Shown: positions 4,061 through 46,214, counted from the stretch's first letter. The stretch: DNA of 64,000 bases from a bacterium (GCA_021780375.1 JAJXYT010000001.1:304-64303), one strand, 5' to 3'. Notes: a model not told the origin generated them from the letters alone. Numbers and translations: made by a program.

Positions 4061-4862
<802 letters not shown>

Positions 4863-6061: not shown

Positions 6062-6064
6062 GCC

Positions 6065-6766: not shown

Positions 6767-6772
6767 GACTGA

Positions 6773-7522: not shown

Positions 7523-7523
7523 T

Positions 7524-7623
7524 CGGATTAAGACGAAGCTTAAGATTACGAGCAAGAGTATGATAACGAGAAAAGCCCGCTGCCACCTCTCGATTCTTAA
7601 ACTTAATCTTAATCGTAATCGCG
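7524..7623. repeat. gattaag-type word-repeat hairpin, copy 2
   Basis: cggattaagacgaagcttaagattacgag pairs with ctcgattcttaaacttaatcttaatcgtaatcgcg across a ~36-nt loop. It lies between lptB and hprK. Confidence 0.6.
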
Positions 7624-7635
7624 GTTGAAAAAAAT

Positions 7636-16000: not shown

Positions 16001-16311
16001 AACGCGAGCATGGCAAGGACCCCTATGACGCCATTTACGAAGGCTGCCTGTTGCGGTTCCGGCCCATCATGATGACCACCATGGCCGCGCTGATGGCCAC
16101 ATTACCCATCGCGCTGGGCCTCGGCGCGGGCGGTTCCTCGCGGCAGACGCTTGGCCTGGCGGTTGTCGGCGGCTTGCTGGTTTCCCAGCTTCTTACGCTT
16201 TATATCACACCGGTGATTTATCTCTACCTGGAATCGGCCCACCAATGGTATTTGCGCAAGCACGCCAGACGCGCCGCGATTCAGACGGGAACGAATCCGG
16301 CGGCGGCGTGA
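13084..16311 (+). CDS. RND multidrug efflux permease (AcrB/MdtB/MdtC-like)
   Basis: 1075 aa with a 12-TM architecture. Conserved blocks include VVDDAIVMLENI and KKNAILMIDFA. Confidence 0.92.
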   Translation: MSIPELFIRRPVMTTLVMLAILLFGIIGYSLLPVSDLPDVDYPTINVSASLPGASPDTMASAVATPLEKQFSTIAGVDSMSSVSALGASQITIQFSLDRNIDAAAQDVQAAIAKAARQLPPNMPTPPTYSKVNPADAPILYLAMSSPTLPLSVVDNYAENLLAEQISMVDGVAQVSVYGSQQYAVRIQVDPNKLAAYGLGIDQVEQAVEQGNVDQPTGILYGKHQAFTVEANGQLEDAAAFRPLIVAWRNGNPVRLEQLGNVLDSVQNNKVAAWYNTPKGSTRAVVLAIQRQPGANTVAVVDNIKKLLPQFRTQIPAAVQLNVLFDRSQSIRESVAEVEHTLFLAVCLVIMVIFIFLRNLSATLIPSLALPMSIIGTFAVMALLGYSLDNLSLMSLTLCVGFVVDDAIVMLENIVRHMENGESPMAAALKGSREIGFTIVSMTLSLTAVFIPVLFMSGLVGRLLHEFAVTIVTAVLVSGFVSLTLTPMMCSRFVHAERGRQHGRVYNAFERYFNGMRDTYDRTLKVVLRHRRTTLIVSLVIFVVTLFLFVVIPKGFFPSEDTGQIFAITEASQDISFDAMRQHQMAAAKIVAADPNVAAFMSAIGAGGPSSTLNQGRMFMRLKPRSERKLSADQIIQELRPKLAQVTGINVYPQNLPLIRVGGRLTKALYQYSLQDSDTKELFHWAPILTDRMAKLPGLQDVTSDLQIASPQVNVDIDRDKAAALGVTAQQVENALNYAYGEMQASTIYSDVAEYWVVFEVLPQFQLEPAALARLYITSSMTSTNGTPNLVPLSAVARLSRSLGPATIAHIGQLPAVTISFNLAPGVALGTAVSEIQEMEAQTHLPATVTGSFQGAAQVYQSSLQGLFALLIMSILVIYIILGILYESFIHPLTILSGLPSAGFGALMTLIIFSWCNTNTLHELAHPQNLKAFFETLVSHAELNIYGFVGLIMLIGIVKKNAILMIDFAIVAQREHGKDPYDAIYEGCLLRFRPIMMTTMAALMATLPIALGLGAGGSSRQTLGLAVVGGLLVSQLLTLYITPVIYLYLESAHQWYLRKHARRAAIQTGTNPAAA

Positions 16312-30738: not shown

Positions 30739-30960
30739 ATGAACAAGCTGCGTTCCAATGGTCTGAATTTCACCGGACTCCTGGCGGAAAATATCGCGCT
30801 CATCTCACCCACTATGACGGCGGCGCTGATCATTCCGCTGATGCTTTCCACGATTGGCAACCTCAGTTGGGTGGGTTACGCGCCGGGCACAATCTTACCG
30901 ATGTTCGTCGTGTTCAATTTGAATCGTTTGCCCCCCAATCAGTTCGGTTGCAACCGGTAA
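30739..30960 (+). pseudogene. N-terminal ~70-aa fragment of an APC-family amino-acid permease
   Basis: MNKLRSNGLNFTGLLAENIALISPTMTAALIIPLMLSTIGNLSWVGYAPGTILPMFVVFNLN resembles the first two TM segments of APC permeases. The ORF ends where the convergent GH53 gene ends. Confidence 0.5.
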
Positions 30961-32270
30961 AAACGGGTCTGGCTCGAGTCCACCGGGAGGGTGACGGTAA
31001 ACACTACCCCCGTGGTTTGGGCCGTGTTGGGCACCAACGACCAGATCGCTGAGGGCTCCAGAGTGGTTGTGGTCGTCAACATCAAAGCCGCTCCACTGAA
31101 TGGCCACTGAAGCTGTAGATTTGAACCGTTGAGTGAGGGGCTTATCAAAAGCGGGGCGGCCATTCCCCCAACGGCGCGGGCCACCGGCAGAACATTGCCA
31201 CCGGCATCAAAAAACGACGACGAATTGAACCCGGCTTCATTGACACCGCTGGCCGCTTGATACTCGGCGCCCCAATAGACGAAGCCGGCCCCGAGGTGGT
31301 TGGGCACACTTTCCACAATCCTGGCCAGCGCGGCGATAAAGCTGACCTGACCAGCCGGGGTGGGAGGGTAGCCGTAAAGTTTGCCAAGCCAGGCGGAAGG
31401 GCAGGTATTGGTGTAGGGAAAGGCGTCCTCAGCTACGATGATGGGTTTGCCAAATTCAACGGCTGCATTGCTGAGACAATTATTCAGATTCGCCGGTGAT
31501 CCCTGGTAAAAAGGGTAATAACTCTCGCCGATGATATCGTAAGGAACTCCTTGAGCATTCAGGTTTTCAAAAAATGACCTGGTCGTGCCCCAGTCACCGC
31601 CTCTGTCAATATGTACGATGATCTTAGGCATTTTAGCCCCCGTAGCATTCGTCGCATCCTTGATTCCCTGGATTGCCGCATTCATCAATTGGCCCAGCCG
31701 GATCCACGATGGGTTGGAGCTGCTCCATGAGCCCGTTAGCTGTCCGTTGGTCCACAACATGCCGTAGGTGATTTCATTCCCGATCTGGACGTAATCCGGC
31801 ATTGCCCCGGCTGCCGCAAAAGCGACGATGGTGTTGCTGTTGTAAGCGCGCATCTGTGACACCAGTTGGGCGAAAGTCAGGGTTGCCCAGGCAGCCGGAG
31901 TGGTTTGATGCCCGGGGTCAGCCCAGGTGTCGGAGTAATGAAAATCCAGCATGAACTGTAACCCGGCGTTTTTGACGCGTTGAGCGAGCGGCAGCGTATA
32001 GGCAAGATTGTTGGTGTAGTTATATGGGTCGGCCTGGGCTTGAGCCGCGCTGCTGGTCCAGAGCCGCAATCTAATGCAATTAATGCCGTGATTCTTGAGA
32101 ATCTGAATCCCGTCCTGAACCTGCCCGGCGTCCTTGTAGGTAATACCCCGATCTTCGAAAAATTTTAGATCAGAAAAGTCCGCCCCGGCGATAAAGCTGT
32201 TTTGCGCGAATGATATACCCGGCGCAAACAGTGCCGCTATCATCATTAAAGAGACACAGGCAGATTTCAT
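30939..32270 (-). CDS. GH53 arabinogalactan endo-beta-1,4-galactanase with FYR-tail domain
   Basis: Signal peptide from ATG 32270. GH53 blocks are present (GADFSDL, NCIRLRLW, MLDFHYSDTWADPGHQ, VQIGNEI). The protein ends RFYRLQPN. Confidence 0.87.
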   Translation of the reverse strand: MKSACVSLMMIAALFAPGISFAQNSFIAGADFSDLKFFEDRGITYKDAGQVQDGIQILKNHGINCIRLRLWTSSAAQAQADPYNYTNNLAYTLPLAQRVKNAGLQFMLDFHYSDTWADPGHQTTPAAWATLTFAQLVSQMRAYNSNTIVAFAAAGAMPDYVQIGNEITYGMLWTNGQLTGSWSSSNPSWIRLGQLMNAAIQGIKDATNATGAKMPKIIVHIDRGGDWGTTRSFFENLNAQGVPYDIIGESYYPFYQGSPANLNNCLSNAAVEFGKPIIVAEDAFPYTNTCPSAWLGKLYGYPPTPAGQVSFIAALARIVESVPNHLGAGFVYWGAEYQAASGVNEAGFNSSSFFDAGGNVLPVARAVGGMAAPLLISPSLNGSNLQLQWPFSGAALMLTTTTTLEPSAIWSLVPNTAQTTGVVFTVTLPVDSSQTRFYRLQPN

Positions 32271-32382
32271 TTTAATAATGCTTACCTCGATCCAGCTGTT
32301 CACCCTGAAACTGAAGCTGGAGTCATTCCATTTTTGCGCGAACAACTCCAGCTTCGTGTCCGGATTTTATAATCCCGAACGG

Positions 32383-35094
32383 TCAGGGTGTCTTCAAGCG
32401 GAAGAATGTCCGGGATCCGGTGGCCGGCACCGGCAACGAATAAAGTCCATACGTGCCGGGCACATCCTGCCAATTCAAGCTGCTGCTTAAATTGGTGGAA
32501 CTCTGCAACTTCACCGCGGGGTTTCCAACCCAGGACAGATTGAGGTTGCCGCCTGTCAGCGGGCCGGCATTGATGCCGCCAACAACTCCCAGGTCCGCAA
32601 TCTGGAAGTTATCGAAGTTGAAAGTTCCCCCGCTCCCGACCGTGACGAACACCAGGCCGGCGCCCGTCATCACACCGCTCAAGTTGCCGGCCGCTGCCGA
32701 CCCAATCAACCCGCCCGAACTGGTCACGGTCAAGTTGTTCCAATTTGCCGCGGCGGGATTAAAGTTCATGGTGTAAGTGGAGAACACCGAGTTCGAGGCG
32801 GCATTCGGCCCCAACAAGGGGTTCGCGGAAATGTACCAATTGGCGCCATTAAGCTGCACCGCCACGTAGGCCGCGACGTTGGTGGCGGAAGCCGAGTTGG
32901 GCGCAATATCCGCCGAGATGCTCAAGTTGGGATAGGCGGCCAGGGCGATGTTCGGGAACGGCAGTCCAGACTGATTGGTATCGGAGGCCGTCGTGGCGTA
33001 ATACACCGTCGTGCCCGGAGTGCCAAGGTAGGCAAAGGCGGCTCCCTGGCTTGCGGCGCTTGTCTGGGCCGTTCCCACCTGGTAGAGGGCGTTGGGAGTG
33101 CCGGGAACCGCTTCCACCCAGCCAATACTGCTGATCGGATAGTTGCCGGCAACCGGGCCTACAAACGGAAACCCTTCCGAATAAACCAGGCCGACGGAAG
33201 GATTGGTTACCGTCAGGGTGGTGGCGCCAAAAATTGCGGCACTGTTATCACCGCCGGCCGCGTTGGTGACATATGCGACGATCTGCAGGCCATTATCGTT
33301 GGCAGTCAGATCCGAGATCGTCAAGGTCGCGGTGTTGGCGCCGGAGATTCGGCCTCCGTTGGAAACAAAGACGCCGTTGGTCGTCCAACTGTAGGTGAAG
33401 GGCGGAGACCCGGCGGCAGAAACCCCAAAGCTCGCGCCACCCCCGGCAGCCACCGTTACCGCCAGCGGGTAATTCAAGCCGATCGACGGCGGTGTTCCGA
33501 CGGCTTGATTGGTAATGATTTCAAAATTCTGGAAATTCATGTCCGAACCGGTCCCGGTATTGTGAGCAATCACCAGGCCGGCGCCAATGATGTTGCCGCT
33601 CAGGGCGCTTGAGGCCTGGCTGCCGATGATCGCACCCGTGCTCGTAATGGCCAGGTTGTTCCAATTGGTTGCCGCGGGGTCAAATCCATATTGATAGGTC
33701 TGATAATTGTTCAATGACGAGAGATCAATCAGGGCAGGTTGTGCCGAGCAATACCACCCGCTGGTCATCTTGACCGCCCAATAAACCGAGATGGCTCCGG
33801 AGACCTGGCCGGCGGCATTTCCCGGGACAAAACCAGCCTGGAAACTTACATACGGGTAACTGGACGGATTTATATCCACAAACGGCAATCCGGACAGTCC
33901 GGTGTCGTTGGTGTCCGTTGTGTAGTAAGCGTTGGTTGTGGCGGAAGGTGAATAGGAAAAGACATCGCCCAGCCCCCCGCCGGCCGGGTAAATGCCCACC
34001 ACCGTGCTGCCCGGCGCGGCACTGACCCAGCCGGGGCCAGTGATTGGCAGGTTGCCATTAGGTCCCACATAAGGGAATGTTTCCGCATACAAGAGCCCCG
34101 GAGGCACGTTACTGACAATCAGCTGCAGGCCGCTGTTGGTGGCGCCGCCAAATTTATTTGTCACGACCAGCGTGTAAAAGGAACCCGCATCGTTGAGGTT
34201 GCAATTGGTGATGGTGAGCGTATTGCCGCTGGTGCCGAGATACCTGCCGCCGCTGATATTAACTCCATTCGTCTGCCACTGGTAAACCAGGAGCGGACCG
34301 GCAAAGGTTGACAGAAACGATGCCCCACCGCCGACGTACACGTATTGCGGGCTTACCGCGGCGGCAGTATTGGTTGGCGCAGTTTGTGGAAAATCGCCCG
34401 GACCTTGATTTATGACGAGTTCGTTATAGTTGAACCCTCCGCTGGTCGGAAGCTCAACAATGCCAATGCCGGTGATCGGCGAGGTCAGGTTGGGGGAGGC
34501 CACGGCACCGATTGTCACATTGGTGGTGCCGTTGATGGTCAAAGTTTGCCAGACGTTGGCCGGATTGGTATAAATCAAGGCATCATTGGTAAACTGGGGG
34601 TAACCAAGATTGCCTTGATTGGGAAACTGATAAGAGGTTGCCACATACCACTGTCCACCCACCAGAACGGCAAAGTAATTGGTGTCCGTTGCCGCCCCGC
34701 GAACCTCGATGTTGAAGGTCAGGTTGGTGTACAGGGTCGGGTTAATATCACTGAAGGAGGAATTGCCGCCGGCTCCGGCGCCCGAGGTGTCGGTTGTGTA
34801 AAGCATCCCGGCCCGGTTGGTGCTCTGAAAGGCTGTAAAATAAACCGTATTGGGCGGCAGCGCCAGGCCGAGGGTCGGGTCGCTCGCGCCCGTGGCCGTG
34901 TAGATGCCGACATAAGGTCCGGCAGTCTGTGATGCCGCAATCGCCGTCCACCCAACCGTATTGATATTGCCGTTCCCGGTGACGCCGCTGTTACCGGTAC
35001 CCCAGTTTTCGGTGTAAACAGTCACCGCAGATGCAAACGGGACCGCGCTCAGCAGAGCGCTCCCGACGACAGCTATGAGTAGTATTTTTTTCAT
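32383..35094 (-). CDS. Large secreted protein: three [~200-aa LamG-like module + Ig-like domain] units plus FYR tail
   Basis: Signal peptide from ATG 35094. The internal threefold repeat is visible in the translation (modules starting VYTENWG, LLYAETFPYVGP, LVYSEGFPFVGP, each followed by an Ig-like YQW/YSW...TLTI block). The protein ends TFFRLKTP. Confidence 0.7.
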   Translation of the reverse strand: MKKILLIAVVGSALLSAVPFASAVTVYTENWGTGNSGVTGNGNINTVGWTAIAASQTAGPYVGIYTATGASDPTLGLALPPNTVYFTAFQSTNRAGMLYTTDTSGAGAGGNSSFSDINPTLYTNLTFNIEVRGAATDTNYFAVLVGGQWYVATSYQFPNQGNLGYPQFTNDALIYTNPANVWQTLTINGTTNVTIGAVASPNLTSPITGIGIVELPTSGGFNYNELVINQGPGDFPQTAPTNTAAAVSPQYVYVGGGASFLSTFAGPLLVYQWQTNGVNISGGRYLGTSGNTLTITNCNLNDAGSFYTLVVTNKFGGATNSGLQLIVSNVPPGLLYAETFPYVGPNGNLPITGPGWVSAAPGSTVVGIYPAGGGLGDVFSYSPSATTNAYYTTDTNDTGLSGLPFVDINPSSYPYVSFQAGFVPGNAAGQVSGAISVYWAVKMTSGWYCSAQPALIDLSSLNNYQTYQYGFDPAATNWNNLAITSTGAIIGSQASSALSGNIIGAGLVIAHNTGTGSDMNFQNFEIITNQAVGTPPSIGLNYPLAVTVAAGGGASFGVSAAGSPPFTYSWTTNGVFVSNGGRISGANTATLTISDLTANDNGLQIVAYVTNAAGGDNSAAIFGATTLTVTNPSVGLVYSEGFPFVGPVAGNYPISSIGWVEAVPGTPNALYQVGTAQTSAASQGAAFAYLGTPGTTVYYATTASDTNQSGLPFPNIALAAYPNLSISADIAPNSASATNVAAYVAVQLNGANWYISANPLLGPNAASNSVFSTYTMNFNPAAANWNNLTVTSSGGLIGSAAAGNLSGVMTGAGLVFVTVGSGGTFNFDNFQIADLGVVGGINAGPLTGGNLNLSWVGNPAVKLQSSTNLSSSLNWQDVPGTYGLYSLPVPATGSRTFFRLKTP

Positions 35095-35181
35095 GATGGT
35101 TGGGTTTATTTTGATTATTTGCTTGGTGCCGATAATGAAAGGAATGTTAAGCAATGGAAAAATCGGGCAATCACCGATGAA

Positions 35182-36090
35182 TTAATTGTAATTGTTCATC
35201 CATGTCGGCCAGTTCGGCGTCCAGGGGACAAAAATCTTGCTCCAAGGCAACGTCCAAAGCTCTTTCAACCCCACGTTCCTGACGGAACCATCTACGAAGG
35301 TCATATTGACAGGGCTTCGGCCGGGATGTCTGGCAGTGGCAAATGACTGCAATTCGGTGAATTTCCCGCAAAAACCTTGAGACTGAGGCGGCAAATTATA
35401 AATCAGGTTGCCGGTGCCAGGGGAGTGCGGATTGGATCCCTGCCAGACGCAGTCGCTGAATAATGGCACTCGTGTCGCGTACCTGCCCGCGGCGGTCATG
35501 GTCCGCCAATACCCCGGCGCATCGGGATCACCAACAATGGTTGCGGTCGGAGGGTTGGCCATCCAGCCGTTAAACCCATAACTGCCGCCCATTCCTGGAC
35601 GACCCCACGTCTCCGTCTGTCCCGTTCCGGGCGCCGTGCTCGAACCGACGGGATAAGCATTTGTACCCATTATCCCCCAGGCTAAAAAAGTGGTGTTGTT
35701 GACAGTCCACATGTTTGCACCCAATGAACTGCGGCATGTGGTGGCGGCAGGGCAAAAGCACATTTTACCGCCCATGCCGGTGCCCGTGCTGGATCCGGGA
35801 ATGTACGGCTGCAAAGCGAACATCCACATCCCATCAGGATCATACCAGCCCAACGGCAAACTGTCGTGGTGGTCCCCCGCATAAAGCTGAAAGGACAACC
35901 CCCACTGCCTGAGGTTCGATACGCACAGAATACGCTGCGCTCGGAGTTTTGCGGCGGACAGGGCCGGCAGCAACAAGGCCGCTAAAATGGCAATGATGGC
36001 AATCACCACCAGCAATTCAATCAACGTAAAGCCTGATCGCCATGGTCGCCTCTTTTTCAATTTTGATATTTTAAAATCGGGCGTCTGCAT
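35182..36090 (-). CDS. DUF1559-type protein with prepilin N-terminal cleavage/methylation signal
   Basis: [25 protein letters not shown] class-III signal and a C-terminal ...[11 protein letters not shown] block typical of the PVC-expanded DUF1559 family. Confidence 0.8.
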
Positions 36091-36266
36091 CTGGTATAAA
36101 TGAATTATCCGGATTGTATATTATTATATATCCTTTATCCGCTCTTGTTCAGCACATTTATGACAAGCCAGTTTTCATCTCATTTGTCCCGCTGTTGGAA
36201 CAACAACGGGCATTGTTTCACCTGACGGCATGAGTGATTACGTCAAACGTAGTTGGTTTTTTGGCC

Positions 36267-36295
36267 TTTGCCTAGCCTCACAAATGTAGAGTATT
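36267..36295 (-). promoter_or_regulatory. Conserved upstream motif, copy A (tttgcctagcctcacaaatgtagagtatt on the plus strand)
   Basis: 29/29 identical to 37391-37419. It lies 177 nt upstream of the DUF1559 gene start. Confidence 0.5.
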
Positions 36296-36567
36296 ACCGT
36301 GGCTACCTCGGCATGGCAAACGACCTAAGTCGTTTTGGATAAATACCATCATCCCGGTTCCGTTTTGCCGAATTGAATTTAAACGGAGCTTTGGGTCGGG
36401 AGCGGACTGGATCACGAAATGAATTTCGTCGATGCACAGTATGTGTCATCTGACAAACGGGCCTGCCGAATCCCGACGCCAAAATTGGCTGGATGATGTT
36501 ACAAGCACAAAGTGCTGCTCATTTTCACAAGCAGCACTTTTGCCTTTCACAATGGTCAAAATCAAAA

Positions 36568-37335
36568 CTAACGGGCGGAAAATACCCTTCGGCGCACAAT
36601 CATCAGCAACGCGCCCAAACCGAGGAATGCGCTCGCAACCGGTTCGGGTACCACGGTGTACCTATACGCCGCCGTGCCAAACTTCGTGGCGGCTCCCCCG
36701 GCATCGGTAGCAGCGTCATAAGCATTTTGACCAAGAGTATAAGCGTGATAGCTATTATCTGTCTCCGCCGGATAATTGCTGAGCAATGAACCATAGGCGG
36801 ATTGCCCGGCACTATTGGGGTACGATGACGCAACGTCAAAGTAGAACTGGCTGCCAACACTCAATCCGAGGCTGCTTAACGGCACGGTGAACGTGAGGAA
36901 ATTGTTTCCTGTGCCGCCAGCATCATAGCTCACTGCGGCGTTCTGCGTCCATGCGCCGCCACTGTAGGTGTCCGCACTGGCGCCCGTGTTCCAAGTGGCC
37001 GCAAAGGCGTTTTCACCGGTACTGATGCCAAGACTGGGCCCCCACCCGTTCAGGGCTCCCGCGGAGTTAAACAGCGCCGTACTGCCACTGGCACCCTGGC
37101 CGACATACTGCAAGAGGACATAATACTGAACGTACGCGCTCTGCGCCGCGCTCGTATTAATGGAGAAAGTGATGCTGCTGGCAGTATTGTTGATTACGAC
37201 GCTGCTGATACCTTCCCCATTGGCCCCGCCGCCATTCGCAGTACCGGGACCGATATAAGTGACCTGAGCCTTAGCCGGCAACAGGGCGATTGACAACGCG
37301 GCGAGTACTGATGCGACTGAAGAAACAATTTTCAT
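36568..37335 (-). CDS. PEP-CTERM sorting-domain protein
   Basis: Signal peptide from ATG 37335. The C-terminus VVPEPVASAFLGLGALLMIVRRR has the PEP motif, a TM helix and a basic tail. Confidence 0.8.
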   Translation of the reverse strand: MKIVSSVASVLAALSIALLPAKAQVTYIGPGTANGGGANGEGISSVVINNTASSITFSINTSAAQSAYVQYYVLLQYVGQGASGSTALFNSAGALNGWGPSLGISTGENAFAATWNTGASADTYSGGAWTQNAAVSYDAGGTGNNFLTFTVPLSSLGLSVGSQFYFDVASSYPNSAGQSAYGSLLSNYPAETDNSYHAYTLGQNAYDAATDAGGAATKFGTAAYRYTVVPEPVASAFLGLGALLMIVRRRVFSAR

Positions 37336-37390
37336 AGACGATTGATTTACGGGTTTGCCAACTGCATCAATTATGCCCAAAATTCTTGAG

Positions 37391-37419
37391 TTTGCCTAGC
37401 CTCACAAATGTAGAGTATT
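37391..37419 (-). promoter_or_regulatory. Conserved upstream motif, copy B
   Basis: Identical 29-mer, 56 nt upstream of the PEP-CTERM gene start and just downstream of the response-regulator stop. Confidence 0.5.
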
Positions 37420-37462
37420 CCAAGCCTTCGCCCGGCCCGCATATTATGTAAGTCCTTCTGAA

Positions 37463-38110
37463 TTAACGGCTATCCGGTTTATCCTGTTTGGTGGAACGGA
37501 ATTTGAGGGCCGCTTCGGTGCGGGAACGGACATGCAGCTTATTGTACACGTGCCGGAGATGCCAGCGCACTGTGCCATCGGTCAATCCCAAGCGGTCGGC
37601 GATTTGTTTGTTGGGGAATCCGCTGGCCAGCAATTCCAGGATCTCCCGCTCGCGCGCCGTGAGGTCTTCCACTTCCATGGCGGTCGCCAGCGGCTCTTGA
37701 AAGGAAGCGATGACCTTGCGCGCGATTTCCCGCGACATCGGGGCGCCGCCCTGCCGGACTTCGCGGATGGCGGCAATGAGTTCTTCGGGGGCGCAACGTT
37801 TCAGGAGATAACCACAGGCCCCCATGCGCAGGGCTTTGAAAATCCGTTCGGTGTCTTCATAGACCGTTACCATGATAATTTGGACGGCGGGCAGCGATTG
37901 TTTCAGTTGAGCGAGGCAATCAATGCCCGACATGTTGGGCAATTGAATGTCCATCAGCACAATCTCGGGCTCGTGTTTGGGAATCACCTTCAACGCTTCT
38001 TCGGCCGTCGCACAAGCGCAGACACAGCGGCATTCCGGGTCCGCGTGGATGAATTCCATGAGACTCTCGCGAATCACTTTGTTGTCTTCAACAATGGCAA
38101 TCCTGGTCAT
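37463..38110 (-). CDS. NarL/LuxR-family response regulator
   Basis: REC domain (IVLMDIQLP) plus a LuxR HTH (LTAREREILELLASGFPNKQIADRLGLTDGTVRWHL). The start overlaps the kinase stop (ATGA). Confidence 0.9.
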   Translation of the reverse strand: MTRIAIVEDNKVIRESLMEFIHADPECRCVCACATAEEALKVIPKHEPEIVLMDIQLPNMSGIDCLAQLKQSLPAVQIIMVTVYEDTERIFKALRMGACGYLLKRCAPEELIAAIREVRQGGAPMSREIARKVIASFQEPLATAMEVEDLTAREREILELLASGFPNKQIADRLGLTDGTVRWHLRHVYNKLHVRSRTEAALKFRSTKQDKPDSR

Positions 38111-41100
38111 GAACTTAAAGGCACGTAAAATCGCACTGTGGTGCCGTGACTGGCTTCACTGGTAATTTCAAATCTTCCACCCAACTTTTCAATGCGCGCC
38201 CGCATGTTGGCCACGCCGTCCATTTCCCCGGTGGGCACCCCCGCGGAGAATCCACGCCCGTTGTCGGCGACGGCCAGCCACACCTGACCTTGTTCCGCCT
38301 GGATGCTCAAGCGAACTTCCGAAGCGTCGGCGTGGCGCACCACATTGGTTAACGCCTCCTTGAACGCCAGGAACAACTGATGCCGGTGCCGTGAATCCAC
38401 CATGGGATCGGGCATTGCGGGCATGCCTTCCAGGCGCCAGGCGATGTTGGCCAGGCCCAGGAAACGGTCCGCGTAAAGACAAAAATAACTGACCAGCGAC
38501 GCGAGGGAATCGTGTTTTGGATTCATGGCCCAGACGATCTCATCCAGCGCCGTGACCATTTCGCGGGCTTTTTCACGCGCTTGTTCCAGATAATGGTTCC
38601 GCTTTTGGTCGGGGGCGGTGGCGGATCTTGCCCGGGCGGCCAACATGCTGATTTCGGTGATGCCCGAGCCGAGTTCATCGTGCAGATCCTGGGCAATCCG
38701 GGCGCGTTCCTGCTCCATGGCGCGCTGGTGCTCGACCTTCTGGCGCTGCTGGATTTGAGCTCCCAGCTCCCGGGTGCGTTGTTCAACCTGCCGATGCAAT
38801 TGAGTAATCCACAGCGCGGCGGCGGCCAGCACACACACCAACACACCCATCATGACCAGCAACCGTTCCAGCGTCCACCACGGCGGCCGCGCCAACACTT
38901 TGATGTCCGCGGACGAATTGAGCAGCAGTTCGAAAGAGGTGATATCCTGACCCATCGCCCGGTTCCCGCCTTCACCCAGATAAACTCCGACCAGTTCCAA
39001 ACGGGCGCCCGGAGCCAGCGAATGGACGGAATCATTCCGGGTATTGAGCCGGGCCATAAACGTGCGGACGCCGCTCCGCATTTCCAGAGCCTGGCCGGCC
39101 GGCGTTTCCCGCACGTTCACGAGCAATCCGTCCACCGTCACGAGCGTCGAGTCATACTCCGCATGGATTAAATTGTCCGGTTGCAGCTTGCGCGCCTTCG
39201 GCAGGGGGGCGTGGCCGATCTTGCGCGCCACGGCCTCATGCAGGAGCGGAGAAGCGCCGCTCAGTCCCGGAAAGCCGACCACTTCCACCCGATCACCGGC
39301 TGCCAGTCCCGGAACCGGTTTCTTCAAAACAAATTGCACGCCGTATTTGTCATCCATCAGATAATATTCCGGAGCCTGTGCGTAAATAATCTGTCCCGAA
39401 ACTTTCACCCGCTGGAACACGCCGGCTTGCGGGTTGAACTGCAACAATTCCGCCACGGTCTTCAAGGGAAGCGAAAACAAATCTGTCGGGGCCGGCTGAT
39501 CCACCGAGATTTCCGCGCCGTAAACCCGGATCTCGCCCACTTTTACCTGGTGCGTCACGTAATCCCAGGAGGCCAGCAGACAGCCCCGCACGCGGACGAC
39601 GGCATCTTCATAGCGCTCCAGCCCCGCCGTCTTGATTCCGACAACCCTTAACTCCAACTTGAGCTGGCCGTCCCCCGTGAACAGCGTTACGCCATTGGTG
39701 CTGACCGACGTGATGATGCCCTGTAATTCAACATACTGGGCATCCAGACTTCCGTTCATCAACTGTTCCCAGGCCGGATGCACCGGCTGCGGCAAACGGC
39801 CCGCCCCCAGATCCCCGACACGGTCCGCATCAACAATGGGAGCAAACAGGCTGGGATCGGTCTTGCCTTCGACCTCGAGGTACTCACCAATCTTCGGCGG
39901 CACGGACCGGCTCTCGGAAGCATCAACCACATACAATCCGCGGGTGGCATCTTGAATGGTGAAAGCCTGGCGTTCCGGCAGGACACAGGTAACGACCCCC
40001 TGGATTTTTACAGGATAGCCCCGCTGCGCCTCTTCCCGGTTCAATTGATGAACTTCACTGGCGGTGGTCAACACCGGCAATGTTCCCGCGCGGGTGTCCT
40101 TGTTTTTGGGCGTGGGATTGGTTGTCCCGATGATTTGGATGGCGTGTTTGTCCGAAACCAACAGGACACCACCCACTTGCTCTGCCTCGGCATCGTAAAC
40201 ACTTTGGCAAACGCCGGTGACCCGGACCCGGCTGTTCAACAGCCGGCCCACCGACAATCCGGAACCATCCGCCACCTTGAGCTTCAGGCGGCCGGTCTCG
40301 GAGGTTAATTCCAGGTCCCAACCATCTTTCCGATCACTGACAAACGTGACTTTTCCTTCAACTTCAACCCACTGATAATCACCGCTTTCGCTCAATGTCT
40401 GCCCGATGGTCATCCGGCGCGGTTTCGGCAGTTCTATCCGTCCGATCGTTTCCAGCCGGAGCCCTGAAAGTGTTCGGGGTTCACCAATGAATAATTGACT
40501 GCCATCATCCGAGGTAAGGTAAAAGGTATAAAGGCCGTCGCGGGGAACCTGAAGATAGCCCGTGTATTCCAATCCAACGTGTTCGTTGTGGCTCATCACA
40601 CCCAGCATGACGCCGAGATCAAAGTTGGACACGTTCCCGGTTTTGAGGGGAGCCAGCTCTTTGAAGTCAGGCAAAACCTCGCCGTCAGCTTCGTAACAGG
40701 CATAATTCAATCCGTTTACAAAATTGGTTGCCTCCGTGGCATCCGTTGGAACACGAAAGAGCACTGAATCAGGAATGCTTTGACGGGGCAGGGCCGGCCC
40801 TTGATAAGCCACTTCCAGGCCATATTTTTCGACACCATTAAACCAATCGACGCGAATGGGATGGCGGCCCGCCTGAAGATAGACCGCCCCGGATTTTTCA
40901 ATCATCGTATGGATGCCGTCGTCATCCACCACCGGTCCCACGATTCCGAGTTGAACACCCGCATCCCGCCGGGTAATGGTGCTTTGGCCCTCCAATCGCA
41001 CGCGCTGGCCCGGTTCGAGGGACCGGCCCGCCAAATCCATCTCCAACTCGTCCGTCCCGGACGCATCCTGCAAAACGAATTTTCCCTGCGCCGGGTCCGC

Positions 41101-41328
41101 CCACAAAATGTCTCCTTCCAGACGGATCCGATAGCTGACATTCGGGTTCTGGGAACCCAGCCGGGCGAGTTGCACAAGGTTGGTCACTGCGGACGAATCG
41201 GTCGGGGCGGTGGCGGGCAACGCCGATCCGGCAGTGAAAATCAAAACACAGCCGATCGTGACACACCCCTGTGCCGTCCCCAACGCTTGACGCGCGCGTG
41301 TCGAAAAGGGCTTCAAGAATTCAATCAT
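38107..41328 (-). CDS. Sensor histidine kinase (HisKA_3/NarX-DesK type) with ~800-aa extracytoplasmic region containing PA14-like segments and repeated OB-like modules
   Basis: H-box IAQDLHDELGS and an HATPase block (VADNGRGF...GGRFEI). There are two hydrophobic anchors. PA14-like sequence: GLNYACYEADGE...GLYTFYLTSDDGSQLFIGE. ATG 41328 is preferred over the track start at 41661. Confidence 0.85.
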   Translation of the reverse strand: MIEFLKPFSTRARQALGTAQGCVTIGCVLIFTAGSALPATAPTDSSAVTNLVQLARLGSQNPNVSYRIRLEGDILWADPAQGKFVLQDASGTDELEMDLAGRSLEPGQRVRLEGQSTITRRDAGVQLGIVGPVVDDDGIHTMIEKSGAVYLQAGRHPIRVDWFNGVEKYGLEVAYQGPALPRQSIPDSVLFRVPTDATEATNFVNGLNYACYEADGEVLPDFKELAPLKTGNVSNFDLGVMLGVMSHNEHVGLEYTGYLQVPRDGLYTFYLTSDDGSQLFIGEPRTLSGLRLETIGRIELPKPRRMTIGQTLSESGDYQWVEVEGKVTFVSDRKDGWDLELTSETGRLKLKVADGSGLSVGRLLNSRVRVTGVCQSVYDAEAEQVGGVLLVSDKHAIQIIGTTNPTPKNKDTRAGTLPVLTTASEVHQLNREEAQRGYPVKIQGVVTCVLPERQAFTIQDATRGLYVVDASESRSVPPKIGEYLEVEGKTDPSLFAPIVDADRVGDLGAGRLPQPVHPAWEQLMNGSLDAQYVELQGIITSVSTNGVTLFTGDGQLKLELRVVGIKTAGLERYEDAVVRVRGCLLASWDYVTHQVKVGEIRVYGAEISVDQPAPTDLFSLPLKTVAELLQFNPQAGVFQRVKVSGQIIYAQAPEYYLMDDKYGVQFVLKKPVPGLAAGDRVEVVGFPGLSGASPLLHEAVARKIGHAPLPKARKLQPDNLIHAEYDSTLVTVDGLLVNVRETPAGQALEMRSGVRTFMARLNTRNDSVHSLAPGARLELVGVYLGEGGNRAMGQDITSFELLLNSSADIKVLARPPWWTLERLLVMMGVLVCVLAAAALWITQLHRQVEQRTRELGAQIQQRQKVEHQRAMEQERARIAQDLHDELGSGITEISMLAARARSATAPDQKRNHYLEQAREKAREMVTALDEIVWAMNPKHDSLASLVSYFCLYADRFLGLANIAWRLEGMPAMPDPMVDSRHRHQLFLAFKEALTNVVRHADASEVRLSIQAEQGQVWLAVADNGRGFSAGVPTGEMDGVANMRARIEKLGGRFEITSEASHGTTVRFYVPLSS

Positions 41329-41401
41329 GGTAGAACCGGGGCTGCATTTGTCGAGACTCTTACATTCAGGTTCAGCAGATGGTTCGGACATTCGGTTTGC
41401 T

Positions 41402-41907
41402 TCAGGCTCGCACGGTTCTGGTACGCGCCAGCGCGTCCGTTTGGGAGGGAACCTCTGTTGAACCGCGGCTCCGCTCGGTGACATTGAATCCCCAAAATCG
41501 AATCGGTTGACCATTCCCTTTGACCAGTGGGTCGCCCTCCGCGCGAATAAAGCCGTCCTTTCCCGCGGGCGCATCCAGCCGGAAAGAAAAATCAATGACG
41601 GAGTTGGTGGCGTGGCGATAATCGATGACAAAAGGCTTAAGCTCGATTCCCGGTGACGCAAACGGCGTCGTCAGCCCGAAGGACCGTCTGAAGAAATCGG
41701 ATCTCCACCGGGGGCATTTATCTTGGTCGTTTCCACACCGCCGTTCGGCGCTTGTCTGCCGGCCGGTGGCACTCCATTCCGGGCCGGCGCCGGCGCCGGG
41801 GTTAAAAGCAAAAACAGAAGGGTCCATCCGGGCGCTCGAATTTTCATCTTCCAGTAAAAGTCGCCGGTTCGGAAGCCTGCGCCCAAAAGTCCGCACCTGA
41901 TTGACAT
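41402..41907 (-). pseudogene. Frameshifted, 3'-truncated remnant of a secreted glycoside-hydrolase-like gene
   Basis: A signal peptide MKIRAPGWTLLFLLLTPAPAPA is in one frame. In another frame, LKPFVIDY...LDAPAGKDGFIRAEGDPLVKGNGQPIRFWGFNV resembles the entry to a GH TIM barrel. The ORF stops ~25 codons later. Confidence 0.4.
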
Positions 41908-41990
41908 CCAAGCTCTCCGCGGGGACAGTTTGGTTCATCGTCGGAGAATCGAGGTTGGCTGTTAACCGGGATATTTCACACTCATTGGCA

Positions 41991-42056
41991 GGGAGCGCCG
42001 GCTTGGAGCCGGCCTGGCGCGTTCGTCGCCCAATGCCGGTTGCAGACCGGCGCTCC
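41991..42056. repeat. Degenerate GC-rich hairpin of the GGAGCGCC...GGCGCTCC class
   Basis: gggagcgccggcttggagccggc ... gccggttgcagaccggcgctcc. The outer 10-11 nt are complementary and the interior is degenerate. Confidence 0.5.
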
Positions 42057-42095
42057 GTTCTGTCGGCGTTTTGTGCGAAGTGCGAAATATTCAGG

Positions 42096-43454
42096 TTAAT
42101 GTCGTCCAATCGTTTCCGCCTGCGCTGTTGGCACTGCCGGCTGAGGGCCTAATACGTACAGAGCGGGAAGCGGGTTGCCCCTGGCATCAAAAAGTGAGTT
42201 GGCATCAGGCCCGTTCCAGCGATTGGTGGAACCCGGAATGAAAGTGGCCTCGGGATGCCAGTAATTCACTCCGATGCCACGCCCTTCCGGCGCTTGCCGG
42301 ACCACTCTGATGAGGTCGGCCAAAAATCGTTCCTGTCCTTCAGGGGTCATGGGCCAAATCATATTCTTCGCCGCGGCGGGCGAGGGATGAACATCCCGGG
42401 AAGGATATGCGGTTTCAACAATCATCACGTCCTTGTGGTAACGTTCAATCGTGTGGCGCAGGTTGTCGCGGACATCCTCCAATGTGCCGTGCCAGTTCGG
42501 ATAATAACTCTGGCCGATGACATCATAGTCAACTCCGGCCCGGGTCAGATGGTCAAAATACCATTTGGTCACCGGCCAGTCACCGCCGCAATCAATATGA
42601 ATGACGATGCGGACGTGGTCCTCCGGCGCGGTGACCGAACGAACGCCACGGGCATCGGCTTTTAAAAGCCGGATGAGATGATCCCACTGTTTGGCATCGT
42701 CGTAAGGTTCCGGCGGTTTGATTGCCGTCACATCACCTCCAAACACCTTGACGGTGGAAAGCGGAACCTTCACCTGGCCTTCCGGCCACAGCATACCGCC
42801 AGTGATTTCGTTGCCGAGCTGGACGAAATCCGGCGTTGCGCCGGCGTCCTTCAACGTCTTGATTACCTGGGCGGTGTAGGCCTGCGTTTGTTTGACCAGG
42901 GCATCAAAATCCAGATTCGCCCACGCGGCGGGCTTGTTCTGTTTCTGTGGATCGGCCCACCAATCGGAATAATGAAAATCAAGCATGAACGTCCCGCCCG
43001 CGTCCTTGATTCGTTTGGCCAGTTTGGTGGTATATTCAAGGCCATTGACACCGTCGCGGGGATCAACCCAAATCCGCAAACGAAAACAGGTCCAGCCGTG
43101 TTTCATGAAAATGGCCAGCGCGTCACCGGGTTTGTCACCGTCCATATAAATGCCGCCGCGCTGCTCGACTTCTGCGAGGGTGGAAATATCCGCCCCCAGA
43201 TAGAACGGGGCCGGATTAACCCGGGCCGCCGCTTGAGGAGCGGGGCCGCTCGCACCTCCGGTGGTCGGGAACAAGAGAATGGCCGCGAGTAGCCCGATCC
43301 CCGATGGAACGCTGTTCCAGGACAAAACGGTGGATGATATTTTTATCTTTCCTGAGGTGCTATGGTTGTCGTATCTGTGGGCAGCCGTTGACCGGTGGGC
43401 GCAGTTGCCGACGACGCCACTGCGACGCAGCCAGGCCGGAAAAAATGTGTCCAT
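42096..43454 (-). CDS. GH53 endo-beta-1,4-galactanase, second paralog without FYR tail (start uncertain)
   Basis: GH53 blocks GADISTL, TCFRLRIW, MLDFHYSDWWADPQKQ and VQLGNEI. The hydrophobic signal-like segment begins ~50 codons after the track start. Confidence 0.85.
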   Translation of the reverse strand: MDTFFPAWLRRSGVVGNCAHRSTAAHRYDNHSTSGKIKISSTVLSWNSVPSGIGLLAAILLFPTTGGASGPAPQAAARVNPAPFYLGADISTLAEVEQRGGIYMDGDKPGDALAIFMKHGWTCFRLRIWVDPRDGVNGLEYTTKLAKRIKDAGGTFMLDFHYSDWWADPQKQNKPAAWANLDFDALVKQTQAYTAQVIKTLKDAGATPDFVQLGNEITGGMLWPEGQVKVPLSTVKVFGGDVTAIKPPEPYDDAKQWDHLIRLLKADARGVRSVTAPEDHVRIVIHIDCGGDWPVTKWYFDHLTRAGVDYDVIGQSYYPNWHGTLEDVRDNLRHTIERYHKDVMIVETAYPSRDVHPSPAAAKNMIWPMTPEGQERFLADLIRVVRQAPEGRGIGVNYWHPEATFIPGSTNRWNGPDANSLFDARGNPLPALYVLGPQPAVPTAQAETIGRH

Positions 43455-43518
43455 GGAATGATGTTACACCCGCAAATCAACTTGTTGCATCAGGAAATCA
43501 ACCGAAGGGCCAAAACCA

Positions 43519-43540
43519 TACATTTGTGAGGCTATGCAAA
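43519..43540 (+). promoter_or_regulatory. Conserved upstream motif, copy C (tacatttgtgaggctatgcaaa)
   Basis: 21/22 identical to the reverse complement of the core of copies A and B. It has the same orientation relative to its downstream gene (GH2, ATG 43638). Confidence 0.5.
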
Positions 43541-43637
43541 ATCCTTCCAAAAGGTTGCCATTCATCCAATGGCCACCACGAAGTTCTTGAAGCGGAACCT
43601 CTCGCTTCGGAATTAACAAGCTGGAAAGGCGATACTT

Positions 43638-46214
43638 ATGAAAGGAACAACACACCTCAGTTTATCTCAACCGGGTGGGAAACATCTGGTTGTCGCCAGC
43701 CTCCTCATTCTGAATTTGTTGACAACCGCTGCTCCGGCAACCAGTCACGTTCGGGAACGTCTTTCATTCGACTCCGACTGGCGTTTTACCAAAGGCGATC
43801 CGCCCGGGACGGGTGATGAACTCAGTTATACCAACATCAAACCCTGGGTTGTGGCCACCGGCAATGAGTTTGTAGTGGACGGCAAAACCATGACGCGCCC
43901 GCCGGGCAATCCTGGTGCAGAGGTCGTCTACACCCGGGGAGGATATGATGACAGCGGCTGGCAGCAACTGAATCTTCCCCACGATTGGGGCATTGCAGGG
44001 CCATTCAACCGGAAAGCTCCCGGCTCAACCGGCAAACTGCCCTGGGAAGGCATCGGCTGGTATCGCAAGCACTTTACGGTCCCCGCCTCCGACCAGGACC
44101 GCCGCCTCTATCTTGCAGTGGATGGCGCGATGTCTTACGCGAACGTCTGGCTGAACGGCCAATACGTCGGCGGTTGGCCCTACGGATATTCCTCCTGGGA
44201 ACTTGACCTTACGCCGTATGTCAAAGCCGGCGCGGAAAATGTCCTCGCCATCCGTTTGGACAACCCGCCGGATTCCTCGCGCTGGTATCCGGGCGGCGGC
44301 ATTTACCGCAATGTCTGGCTGGTCAAAACCGGGCCGGTGCATGTGGCGCACTGGGGCACTTACGTCACCACGCCGAAAATCAGTCCCGCCGCCGCCACGG
44401 TGAAAATACAGGTCATTGTGGAGAACGAGGCGAAAATTGCCGCCACCGTATCGGTGAAAAATGAGGTTTACGAACTCAAGGCTGAGGGAGACAAAGGTGA
44501 ATCCGTTGCCACAACCACGACCGACGGTGTGCAAGTTGCGCCGCAAAGCAACCGGCTGATTCCGGCGCAGGCCACCGTCAAAAACCCGCGGCTTTGGAGC
44601 CTGAAAAAACCGCAACGCTACGTTGTGGTCACTTCGATTGAGCAAAACGGCAAACGGTTGGACCATTACGAAACGCCCTTCGGCATCCGCACCATCAAGT
44701 TTGACGCCAACCAGGGTTTCTTCCTGAATGGAAAACACGTCCGCCTTAACGGCGTTTGCGACCATGCCGACCTGGGCGCGCTTGGCACGGCAATCAATAC
44801 CCGCGCCCTGGAGCGCCAAATCCAAATTCTACAGAAAATGGGCTGCAATGCCATCCGTACCAGTCATAATCCGCCCGCGCCGGAGTTGCTCGATTTGTGC
44901 GACCGCATGGGGATGCTGGTGATGGACGAGTCGTTTGACTGCTGGGAGCGCGGCAAACGGCCCAATGATTATCATCTGCTGTTCGATGATTGGCATGAAA
45001 AAGACTGGCGCGCGGAATTGCGCCGCGACCGGAATCATCCCGGCATCATCCTCTGGAGCATCGGCAACGAGGTGCCCGATCAGAGAACGCCCGCCGGTCT
45101 GCGAATTGCCGCCGAATTGACCCGCATCGCGCACGAGGAAGACCCGACCCGGCCCACGACCGCCGCCTGCGACCAAATTGCGTCGGGCTTCGATGGTTTC
45201 CAGACCAACGTTGATGTTTTCGGCTATAACTACAAACCTTTCCTGTACGCCAGGGTCCATGCGGCCAATCCCGGTCTGCCGATCTTTGGCAGCGAAACCG
45301 CCTCCTGCATCAGCTCACGCGGTGAGTACTTTTACCCCGTCAGCACCAACAAGAATGATGGCAAGTCCGATTTCCAGATGAGTTCGTACGACCTTTCGGC
45401 GCCGCCTTGGGCGACGATCCCGGACACCGAATTCAAAGGCCAGGACGAAAATCCATTCGTAGCCGGCGAGTTTGTGTGGACGGGTTTTGATTACCTCGGC
45501 GAACCGACGCCGTACGATGCTCCCAACGATCCTTCGCGCAGTTCTTATTTCGGGATCGTTGACCTGGCCGGCTTCCAGAAAGACCGTTTTTATCTGTATC
45601 AAGCGCGCTGGCGGCCTGACTTGCCCATGGCTCACTTGGTGCCGCAGTGCTGGAACTGGCCGGACCGCGCCGGGCAGACCACACCCGTGTTTGTTTATAC
45701 TTCCGGCGATGCTGCCGAACTGTTCCTCAACGGCAAATCGCTGGGCCGGAAGACCAAGGAACAATATGAATACCGTCTTTGTTGGAATGAAGTGAAATAC
45801 GAACCGGGCAAACTCAAAGTGGTTGCTTACAAAAACGGCAAGCCGTGGGCAACCGACATGGTGCAGACCACCGGCCCGGCCGCGAAGCTCGCCTTGCAGC
45901 CGGATCGCAAAAAAATCCACGCTAACGGTAAAGATTTATCCTTCGTCACATTGACGGTCGAGGATAAGAACGGTTTGATGGTCCCCCGGGCGGCCAATGC
46001 CATCCATTTCGAAATTTCCGGTCCGGGCGAAATTGCGGCCACCGATAACGGCGACCCAACGGATTTGGTCTCGTTTCCCTCCCACGACCGCAAGGCATTT
46101 AACGGCCTTTGCCTCGCCATCGTTCGCTCCCAGGCAGGACAGAGCGGGACCATTAAACTCACAGCAATATCCGATGGCTTAAAAGCGGCCAGCGTTTCCA
46201 TCCGGGCCCGATGA
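43638..46214 (+). CDS. GH2 beta-galactosidase
   Basis: 858 aa with a signal-like N-terminus. It has a GH2 sugar-binding domain, Ig domain and TIM barrel, with blocks NAIRTSHNPP and WSIGNEV. Confidence 0.9.
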   Translation: MKGTTHLSLSQPGGKHLVVASLLILNLLTTAAPATSHVRERLSFDSDWRFTKGDPPGTGDELSYTNIKPWVVATGNEFVVDGKTMTRPPGNPGAEVVYTRGGYDDSGWQQLNLPHDWGIAGPFNRKAPGSTGKLPWEGIGWYRKHFTVPASDQDRRLYLAVDGAMSYANVWLNGQYVGGWPYGYSSWELDLTPYVKAGAENVLAIRLDNPPDSSRWYPGGGIYRNVWLVKTGPVHVAHWGTYVTTPKISPAAATVKIQVIVENEAKIAATVSVKNEVYELKAEGDKGESVATTTTDGVQVAPQSNRLIPAQATVKNPRLWSLKKPQRYVVVTSIEQNGKRLDHYETPFGIRTIKFDANQGFFLNGKHVRLNGVCDHADLGALGTAINTRALERQIQILQKMGCNAIRTSHNPPAPELLDLCDRMGMLVMDESFDCWERGKRPNDYHLLFDDWHEKDWRAELRRDRNHPGIILWSIGNEVPDQRTPAGLRIAAELTRIAHEEDPTRPTTAACDQIASGFDGFQTNVDVFGYNYKPFLYARVHAANPGLPIFGSETASCISSRGEYFYPVSTNKNDGKSDFQMSSYDLSAPPWATIPDTEFKGQDENPFVAGEFVWTGFDYLGEPTPYDAPNDPSRSSYFGIVDLAGFQKDRFYLYQARWRPDLPMAHLVPQCWNWPDRAGQTTPVFVYTSGDAAELFLNGKSLGRKTKEQYEYRLCWNEVKYEPGKLKVVAYKNGKPWATDMVQTTGPAAKLALQPDRKKIHANGKDLSFVTLTVEDKNGLMVPRAANAIHFEISGPGEIAATDNGDPTDLVSFPSHDRKAFNGLCLAIVRSQAGQSGTIKLTAISDGLKAASVSIRAR

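Follow-up and report, generated by a model that had tools for sequence, protein, structure and literature searches.

A sensor histidine kinase with a putative circularly permuted PA14 domain in a chain of OB-like modules, encoded beside galactan-degradation genes

A 64,000-nucleotide stretch of bacterial DNA (GCA_021780375.1 JAJXYT010000001.1:304-64303; hereafter the window, with positions counted from its first letter) encodes a sensor histidine kinase of 1073 residues. The kinase is a membrane sensor of the soil-Verrucomicrobia type with an all-beta outer region. In this region, the two halves of a PA14 domain follow each other in reversed order and are predicted to fold back together into one circularly permuted domain, held in a chain of OB-like modules. 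The gene lies next to galactanase and beta-galactosidase-like genes, and we consider it likely that the OB chain with its single permuted PA14 lectin is a periplasmic galacto-oligosaccharide sensor that controls the galactan locus. Two-component sensors with a carbohydrate module are of a familiar kind; a permuted PA14 in an OB array is new. A full-text literature search returned no report of a permuted PA14 or of a PA14-bearing sensor kinase; one candidate from that search, a permuted domain order in a GH3 enzyme, was discarded, as it is not a permuted PA14.

The two halves of PA14 lie in reversed order

The kinase gene and the parts of its PA14 unit are as follows.

38107-41328, minus strand: sensor histidine kinase gene, 1073 aa (from the open reading frame (ORF) and homologue N-termini)
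40744-40935, minus strand: C-terminal half of PA14, placed first (residues 132-195), with VVDDDGxH and the WFN + GVEKY loop (CBL2 equivalent)
40717-40743, minus strand: linker that connects what were the C- and N-termini of the ancestral PA14 (residues 196-204), of high entropy
40477-40716, minus strand: N-terminal half of PA14, placed second (residues 205-284), with the GLEY motif and S273-D274-D275-G276-S277 (DcisD)

When the full-length kinase was scanned with Pfam, PA14 (PF07691) was recognised with 42 bits (cutoff 24) over residues 243-282, which correspond to positions 38-77 of the 147 in the profile. Scanned alone, residues 120-200 matched profile positions 80-133 (E 0.036) and residues 196-300 matched positions 4-77 (E 2.4e-9). 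The two halves are therefore complementary and meet at profile positions 77 and 80, and no collinear full-length match, with the N-half before the C-half, was found, the order in the kinase being reversed. The unit in its native order scored 48.7 bits in two stretches, whereas an artificial sequence with the N-half followed by the C-half gave one contiguous match of 55.5 bits.

Searches against PDB sequences pointed the same way. Both halves were placed on the single PA14 of the sulfatase 9S8A, the downstream half on residues 506-605 and the upstream half on residues 631-677, so that the order is canonical in the target and reversed in the kinase query. The native-order unit also gave an unbroken alignment that spans the domain junction in two tandem PA14 dyads, 6QDI (E 4e-12) and 6QE7 (RsgI3), with its upstream half on the first domain of these dyads. 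Because the halves are complementary, meet at positions 77 and 80 and in their native order span a dyad junction, we interpret the unit as circularly permuted, with a tandem pair as its source.

An earlier note, made from the DNA sequence alone, had proposed PA14 halves in reversed order at 40483-40713 and 40759-40890, explained either by circular permutation or by two partial domains. Its coordinates are right within one or two residues, and the domain parsing bears out both the PA14 relationship and the non-canonical order (profile positions 80-133, then 4-77). As to the two explanations, one permuted domain is favoured by the complementary halves, together with the rigid body predicted by AlphaFold2 (AF2) and the conserved site that the halves share, both described below.

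Predicted structure of the permuted unit

The AF2 model of the full-length kinase, built with 117 homologues, has a mean local confidence score (pLDDT) of 77 and an all-beta sensor whose modules reach pLDDT 80-90. Residues 118-300, modelled separately with a 45-sequence sub-alignment, gave a predicted TM-score (pTM) of 0.74, with residues 138-284 at pLDDT 85-95 and both flanks below 50; both models place the strands at identical positions. By the TM-score formula for 183 residues, a pTM of 0.74 equals a rigid body of ~147 residues, while the ceiling would be ~0.44 if only the larger half were rigid. Structure prediction had been suggested in the earlier note as a way to probe the permutation, and it returned residues 138-284 as one rigid body, which are predicted to form a single compact 147-residue PA14-like domain.

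Since this monomer model (pTM 0.74) packs both halves within one chain, it speaks against an arrangement in which the halves pair between the two chains of a kinase dimer. Such a domain swap would couple ligand binding to dimer geometry. It would suit the general knowledge that histidine kinases are obligate dimers, as well as the short linker between the PA14 halves (~9-15 residues), which has the length of the inter-domain linker in canonical dyads. We regard it as very unlikely.

A conserved putative sugar site shared by both halves

In RsgI PA14 domains, the sugar site is made up of the DcisD calcium motif and CBL2, a loop of five residues on which the choice between pectin and xylan depends, a logic that was demonstrated experimentally for the RsgI PA14 dyads (PMC6852018). 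In the kinase, the DcisD equivalent is D274-D275 within S-D-D-G-S of the downstream half, and CBL2 corresponds to N164 with G165-Y169, behind W162-F163 of the upstream half, where N164 is aligned to the FNNTGN loop of 6QDI. With the calcium- and sugar-site residues split in this way, a working site needs both halves.

These residues are strongly conserved. The alignment of 117 orthologues shows no variation at S273, D275, G276, S277 and F163 and hardly any at W162, N164 and D274; across 85 paralogous units, the entropies of W, F, N and SDDGS stay at or below 0.53 bits. The motif V-D-[DN]-[DN]-G-x-H (134-140) is common to the kinases and to canonical PA14 arrays. Mean entropies of the PA14 halves are 0.86 and 0.96 bits, to be compared with 0.76 and 0.98 bits for the kinase core and 2.09 bits for the nine-residue linker. 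Loop 165-169 behaves differently, with an entropy of 0.7-1.7 bits in the orthologues versus 2.7-3.7 bits across the paralogous units. The sequence WFNGVEKYG is present in 58/117 orthologues; loci linked to GH53 carry WFN-G[VLP]EK[YF]GL, and other loci have different loops. By analogy with CBL2, the five residues after WFN may set ligand specificity.

The same data bear on the idea that the PA14 pieces are decayed leftovers of a tandem pair with no working lectin site, in a kinase that senses something other than a glycan. This would agree with a full-length Pfam scan that recognises just 40 PA14 residues, and with a Foldseek search in which the fragment model retrieved no PA14 structure. However, both halves are conserved like the catalytic core over the 117 orthologues, with invariant site residues, the C-then-N arrangement is retained in 78 representatives (50% identity clusters), and the linkage to glycosidase genes is consistent. 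We judge decay to be extremely improbable.

Relatives and origin of the permutation

With residues 37-412 as the query, 1.84 billion cluster representatives yielded 7997 proteins at E <=0.001 and 565 at E <=1e-30, and a profile of the permuted unit was built and run on the best 150 representatives. In kinases, the C-then-N unit occurs singly and in isolation; 85 such units were counted in 78 of these 150 representatives, which stand for clusters at 50% identity. Long secreted proteins with canonical tandem PA14 arrays always begin with a match to the N-half alone and finish with one to the C-half alone, full units filling the interior; P0124, for instance, has eight PA14 stretches, an NPCBM domain and a T9SS tail. 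The OB/permuted-PA14 module occurs twice in some longer kinases and was also found in a HisKA + receiver hybrid kinase.

The order OB, C-half, N-half, OB is kept with the same break point in paralogues down to ~33-40% identity. As arrangement and break point are thus preserved across distant paralogues, the permutation is old and fixed rather than an assembly or frameshift artefact. Because the canonical tandem arrays match the permuted profile across their repeat junctions, the permuted PA14 probably arose from a trimmed tandem dyad.

The kinase family is large, with no fewer than 935 close clusters and 566 matches in genomes, and is without description in the searchable literature. With few exceptions, the kinase-type members encountered belong to Verrucomicrobiota, as do the great majority of the named relatives (Verrucomicrobiia, Limisphaerales). 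Bacteroidota, for example Hymenobacter and Ginsengibacter, account for most canonical arrays of this PA14 subfamily. Some close relatives come from metagenome-assembled genomes labelled Limnocylindrales, Acidiferrales, Bifidobacteriaceae or Actinomycetota (loci L010, L011, L023, L029, L031, L036, L039 and L045), which are probably mis-binned contigs or wrongly labelled genomes.

A chain of OB-like modules surrounds the PA14 unit

Apart from PA14, the outer region is made of the following repeats.

40948-41187, minus strand: OB-like module B0 (residues 48-127), from AF2 strands and a sub-threshold BOF/YgiW match
38890-40458, minus strand: five further OB-like modules, alternating in type: A1 (291-404), B1 (413-509), A2 (515-611), B2 (620-706) and A3 (715-813)

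The sensor therefore reads B0, PA14 unit, A1, B1, A2, B2, A3, and each module consists of a short helix and five or six strands. When the family alignment was compared with itself in hhalign, residues 291-542 paired with 503-739 (probability 96.5%) and 704-816 with 295-404 (85%). Foldseek on the whole AF2 model gave as its top match p204 HINab, a protein of tandem OB folds (E 7e-13), which supports the term OB-like at the level of the predicted fold. Sequence families were less informative: residues 64-115 of B0 scored 24.5 bits against a cutoff of 35 for BOF/YgiW-YdeI (NF033674), Pfam assigned no family over residues 290-820, and residues 291-820 had no real match among PDB sequences. Hence, the earlier proposal of at least five repeated OB modules holds for the repeats (hhalign) and for the fold (Foldseek), with two amendments, namely that the AF2 strands give six modules and that sequence-family cutoffs are not reached. 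B0 was also considered as a diverged PA14 N-half and rejected, because the other OB modules share its helix and five strands as well as its F-x-LQD-x-x-G motif; moreover, the PA14 fragment folds without it in AF2.

The conservation of two of these modules raises the question of which part binds the ligand. B1 (413-509) and A2 (515-611) have mean entropies of 0.82 and 0.78 bits, as low as those of the PA14 halves, and B1 has many invariant residues. It could be that PA14 folds as predicted but serves as an anchor, a spacer or a dimer contact, while the OB-like (BOF-like) B1 and A2 bind the ligand. On the other hand, BOF-type OB folds have no established ligand, the calcium- and sugar-site residues of PA14 are kept across all paralogues, and the adjacent loop varies with the linked glycosidase, as is the signature of a specificity site. 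Ligand binding by B1 and A2 is therefore unlikely in our view, and we retain the permuted PA14 as the candidate sugar-binding module.

Membrane layout, kinase core and partner regulator

The remaining features of the kinase and its partner are listed here.

41206-41286, minus strand: N-terminal hydrophobic segment (residues ~15-41), from hydropathy; AF2 pLDDT below 50
38794-38880, minus strand: transmembrane helix 2, TM2 (residues 817-845); hydropathy peak 2.76; helix in AF2
38515-38793, minus strand: signalling helix into the HisKA_3 dimerisation/phosphoacceptor (DHp) domain (residues 846-938), from Pfam, conservation and AF2
38113-38397, minus strand: HATPase_c catalytic domain (residues 978-1072), from Pfam
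37463-38110, minus strand: NarL/LuxR-family response regulator, 215 aa, whose start overlaps the kinase stop (ATGA)

A longer frame that opens with TTG exists (38107-41661, minus strand), but homologues start at the ATG at 41328 (MIEFL...), and we therefore prefer the 1073-aa product. A Kyte-Doolittle scan found hydrophobic segments only at residues ~15-41 and 817-845, which leaves ~775 residues outside the cytoplasmic membrane. The gene at 38107-41328 with two anchors around a very large sensor was thus read correctly in the earlier note. Judging from its sequence, the first segment is either an uncleaved signal anchor or a cleaved signal peptide.

On the cytoplasmic side, Pfam recognised HisKA_3 at residues 874-938 (38.9 bits, cutoff 24), with a phospho-acceptor, H883, that is invariant in the 117 orthologue sequences, and HATPase_c at residues 984-1072 (50.7 bits, cutoff 26.4). 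The kinase has no HAMP domain; the helix from TM2 runs straight into HisKA_3, and in the AF2 model a single helix spans TM2 (about 830) to residue 901, entering the DHp domain. The regulator consists of Response_reg (95.8 bits) and GerE (68.9 bits) domains and is closest to the NarL model in NCBIfam (162.8 bits). In the same database, the cytoplasmic part of the kinase is nearest to MctS, MadS, UhpB, NarX and LiaS, all far below the equivalog cutoffs: for this part alone, the best score against the NarX, NarQ, UhpB, LiaS, MctS and MadS models was 76.7 bits, against cutoffs of 400-700. Foldseek on the AF2 model gave DesK as the top structural match for the cytoplasmic part, ranking after p204 HINab. 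The kinase thus belongs to the HisKA_3 (NarX/DesK) class with a NarL-family partner, in keeping with the plain HisKA_3/HATPase core and the ATGA-coupled LuxR regulator that had been noticed at the outset.

Linkage to glycosidase genes

The genes around the kinase-regulator pair include the following.

42096-43454, minus strand: GH53 endo-beta-1,4-galactanase, upstream of the kinase; the adjacency is conserved in orthologue loci
43638-46214, plus strand: GH2 beta-galactosidase-like gene, divergent from GH53
30939-32345: second GH53 gene
32383-35154: 923-aa Ig-domain protein, between the second GH53 and the regulator
35182-36090: prepilin-like N_methyl/DUF1559 protein, between the second GH53 and the regulator
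36568-37380: PEP-CTERM-like ORF, between the second GH53 and the regulator

UxaE and UxaC genes are also found in the window. Five metagenomic orthologue loci retain the kinase-regulator pair with GH53 and/or GH2, and by tblastn many orthologue loci contain relatives of the Ig-domain and prepilin-like proteins.

A scan of species-representative genomes yielded 566 relatives, and 80 loci were tabulated, among them those of 30 full-length orthologues (at least 55% identity) and 16 paralogues (below 55%). The orthologues have an adjacent regulator in 30/30 cases and, within 10 kb, GH53 in 23/30 and GH53 or GH2 in 26/30; the four loci with neither glycosidase are at most 10.6 kb long. In contrast, only 2/16 paralogue loci contain GH53, and the paralogues that were inspected adjoin GH20 (two cases) or GH123. 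One paralogue of 1061 aa (L057), with a NarL-type regulator, is encoded by the cultured Verrucomicrobiae bacterium DG1235 (DS990592.1, 3679992-3700447) and adjoins a GH87/GH65/GH71-like cluster with GH99/GH71-like, alpha-1,3-glucanase, GH65 and MFS transporter genes; this strain could be an experimental model for the kinase family. As orthologues keep GH53 or GH2 and paralogues adjoin other glycosidases, the family appears to consist of glycan sensors with divergent specificities.

The GH53 stop and the kinase start are separated by a spacer of 768 bp (41329-42095); in L001 and L002, both orthologue loci, the two overlap instead. An ORF in the spacer (41402-42109, minus strand) has a C-terminal part (…FIRAEGDPLVKGNGQPIRFWGFNVTE) that resembles a glycosidase start, matches nothing in Pfam and may be the remnant of a gene. 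Right behind the GH53 stop is an imperfect inverted repeat (41992-42021 / 42027-42056). A promoter and terminator scan of the spacer found nothing convincing, nor did an Rfam scan of 36000-44000 return any match.

Elsewhere in the window, Pfam gave nothing at E 1e-4 for two ORFs (51316-53535, 739 aa, and 5639-7642, 667 aa), of which the first shows a faint BNR repeat. An 816-aa MtrC/MtrF-like multihaem cytochrome with PKD and Big_9 domains (16345-18795) is encoded beside an AcrB/HlyD efflux pair and is unrelated to the kinase. A 1075-aa ORF (13084-16311) was considered as a kinase paralogue and rejected, being an AcrB-type pump.

A candidate operator

Three mismatch-free copies of one 15-mer are present in the window, each in the same orientation as the locus gene downstream of it.

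43519-43533, plus strand: TACATTTGTGAGGCT, exact, upstream of GH2
37398-37412, minus strand: TACATTTGTGAGGCT, exact, upstream of the PEP-CTERM-like ORF 36568-37380
36274-36288, minus strand: TACATTTGTGAGGCT, exact, upstream of the prepilin-like N_methyl/DUF1559 gene 35182-36090

The two minus-strand copies lie in identical 29-nt blocks (36267-36295 and 37391-37419), to which 43512-43543 is a third, related copy. Locus L001 also has three copies of the 15-mer at equivalent places. From its position and repetition, TACATTTGTGAGGCT is a candidate operator that the NarL-type regulator may bind. In the paralogue locus L008, near GH123, where the kinase is ~48% identical in its best tblastn segment, the 15-mer is found at 4339-4353 upstream of a DUF1349 gene. 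This identity of the 15-mer suggests a DNA specificity common to the regulators of different sensor paralogues.

Proposed mechanism and its weak points

We propose that a tandem PA14 pair was trimmed of the greater part of its first N-half and of its last C-half, and that the leftover C-half and N-half would fold back together into a PA14-like sandwich of 147 residues. This would rebuild a calcium-dependent sugar site from D274-D275 of the downstream half and the WFN-GVEKY loop of the upstream half. In the orthologue group, the ligand would most likely be a beta-1,4-galacto-oligosaccharide freed by the co-encoded GH53 galactanase. Binding would be signalled through the rigid OB chain to TM2 and along the continuous helix into the DHp domain; with its phosphorylation altered, the NarL-type regulator would in turn control the galactan locus (GH2, pseudopilin-like and PEP-CTERM genes), probably via the 15-mer. 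Ligand identity, signal path and regulon are what we infer from the data above. The earlier note had suggested direct polysaccharide sensing. Its link to glycans is indirectly supported by the glycosidase linkage in orthologues and paralogues, but as the host is two-membraned, a periplasmic oligosaccharide is a likelier ligand than the polymer.

Several observations weigh against this proposal, beyond the low entropy of B1 and A2 given above. The C-half taken alone is marginal against Pfam PA14 (E 0.036), and two of the five AF2 fragment models were poor (mean pLDDT 57 and 54). The Foldseek search of the 183-residue fragment model gave no significant PDB match (best E 0.027), only generic jelly-roll and CBM hits at E 0.027 or worse, and no PA14 entry among its top 50. 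It should be noted that this aligner depends on sequence order and that the sandwich is permuted, so the missing match neither confirms nor refutes a PA14 fold. In hhalign comparisons for vestigial flanking strands, RRDAGVQLGIVG against SDDGSQLFIGE (E 0.27) and LETIGRIELPKPRR against IEKSGAVYLQAGRH (E 0.47) were not significant. In the locus itself, the 768-bp spacer between GH53 and the kinase is unlike the relatives, and no copy of the 15-mer lies directly upstream of the kinase gene.

A broader generalisation is more tentative, and we put it forward as a possibility somewhat short of an even chance: the OB/permuted-PA14/OB module might be a general glycan-sensing device of Verrucomicrobiota, with a specificity code in the WFN loop and a permutation that is adaptive. 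Verrucomicrobiota are abundant glycan degraders in soil and water. To our knowledge, their recognition of polysaccharides is poorly known, and the SusC/D and HTCS (hybrid two-component system) machinery of Bacteroidota is absent there. If the generalisation were true, the module would be the counterpart of HTCS and RsgI, and the sensed glycan could be read from the five residues after WFN, which would allow substrate prediction for uncharacterised loci and the design of glycan biosensors. The permutation would move the PA14 termini so that the lectin stands in line within a rigid OB rod, permitting mechanical transmission to the membrane helix. To protein evolution, it would add a case in which nature has circularly permuted PA14 and fixed the change widely, and canonical tandem arrays would be its plausible ancestors.

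Comparison with known systems

Sensors of the NarX/NarQ, DesK, LiaS and UhpB class share with the kinase the HisKA_3 and HATPase_c core, the conserved histidine and a NarL-type partner, but their sensor parts are four-helix bundles or membrane-only and unrelated to the one described here. Like BOF/YgiW-YdeI and HIN-200 proteins, the outer modules show small barrels of five strands preceded by a helix; they differ in that no module reaches a family cutoff and that six copies are strung together.

Among glycan sensors, the HTCS of Bacteroides resemble the kinase in its proposed function, as a large periplasmic all-beta sensor encoded beside degradation genes. They recognise oligosaccharides of one glycan and induce the adjacent degradation genes. 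Their Reg_prop/Y_Y_Y beta-propellers and their fused receiver and AraC output were not found in the kinase by the Pfam scan, and SusC/D is absent from the locus.

Permuted sugar-binding folds have precedents. CBM36 and CBM60 are circularly permuted carbohydrate-binding modules, as reportedly described by Montanier et al. in 2010 (a paper cited in PMC6852018), and concanavalin A and favin are likewise related by circular permutation. As is proposed for the permuted PA14, these pairs are calcium-dependent beta-sandwich sugar binders with a shifted strand order, but they belong to a different fold family.

Close in sequence are RsgI3 and RsgI4 of Clostridium thermocellum and C. clariflavum (6QE7 and 6QDI), which are among the best PDB sequence matches to the PA14 of the kinase and, like it, are membrane-anchored signalling proteins whose PA14 carries DcisD and a five-residue CBL2. 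The RsgI PA14 sensors detect plant polysaccharides (pectin, xylan) and switch on the matching glycosidase genes (PMC6852018). They do so with two complete canonical PA14 domains, an N-terminal anti-sigma-I domain and sigma-factor release, whereas the kinase has one permuted PA14 and a HisKA_3/NarL output.

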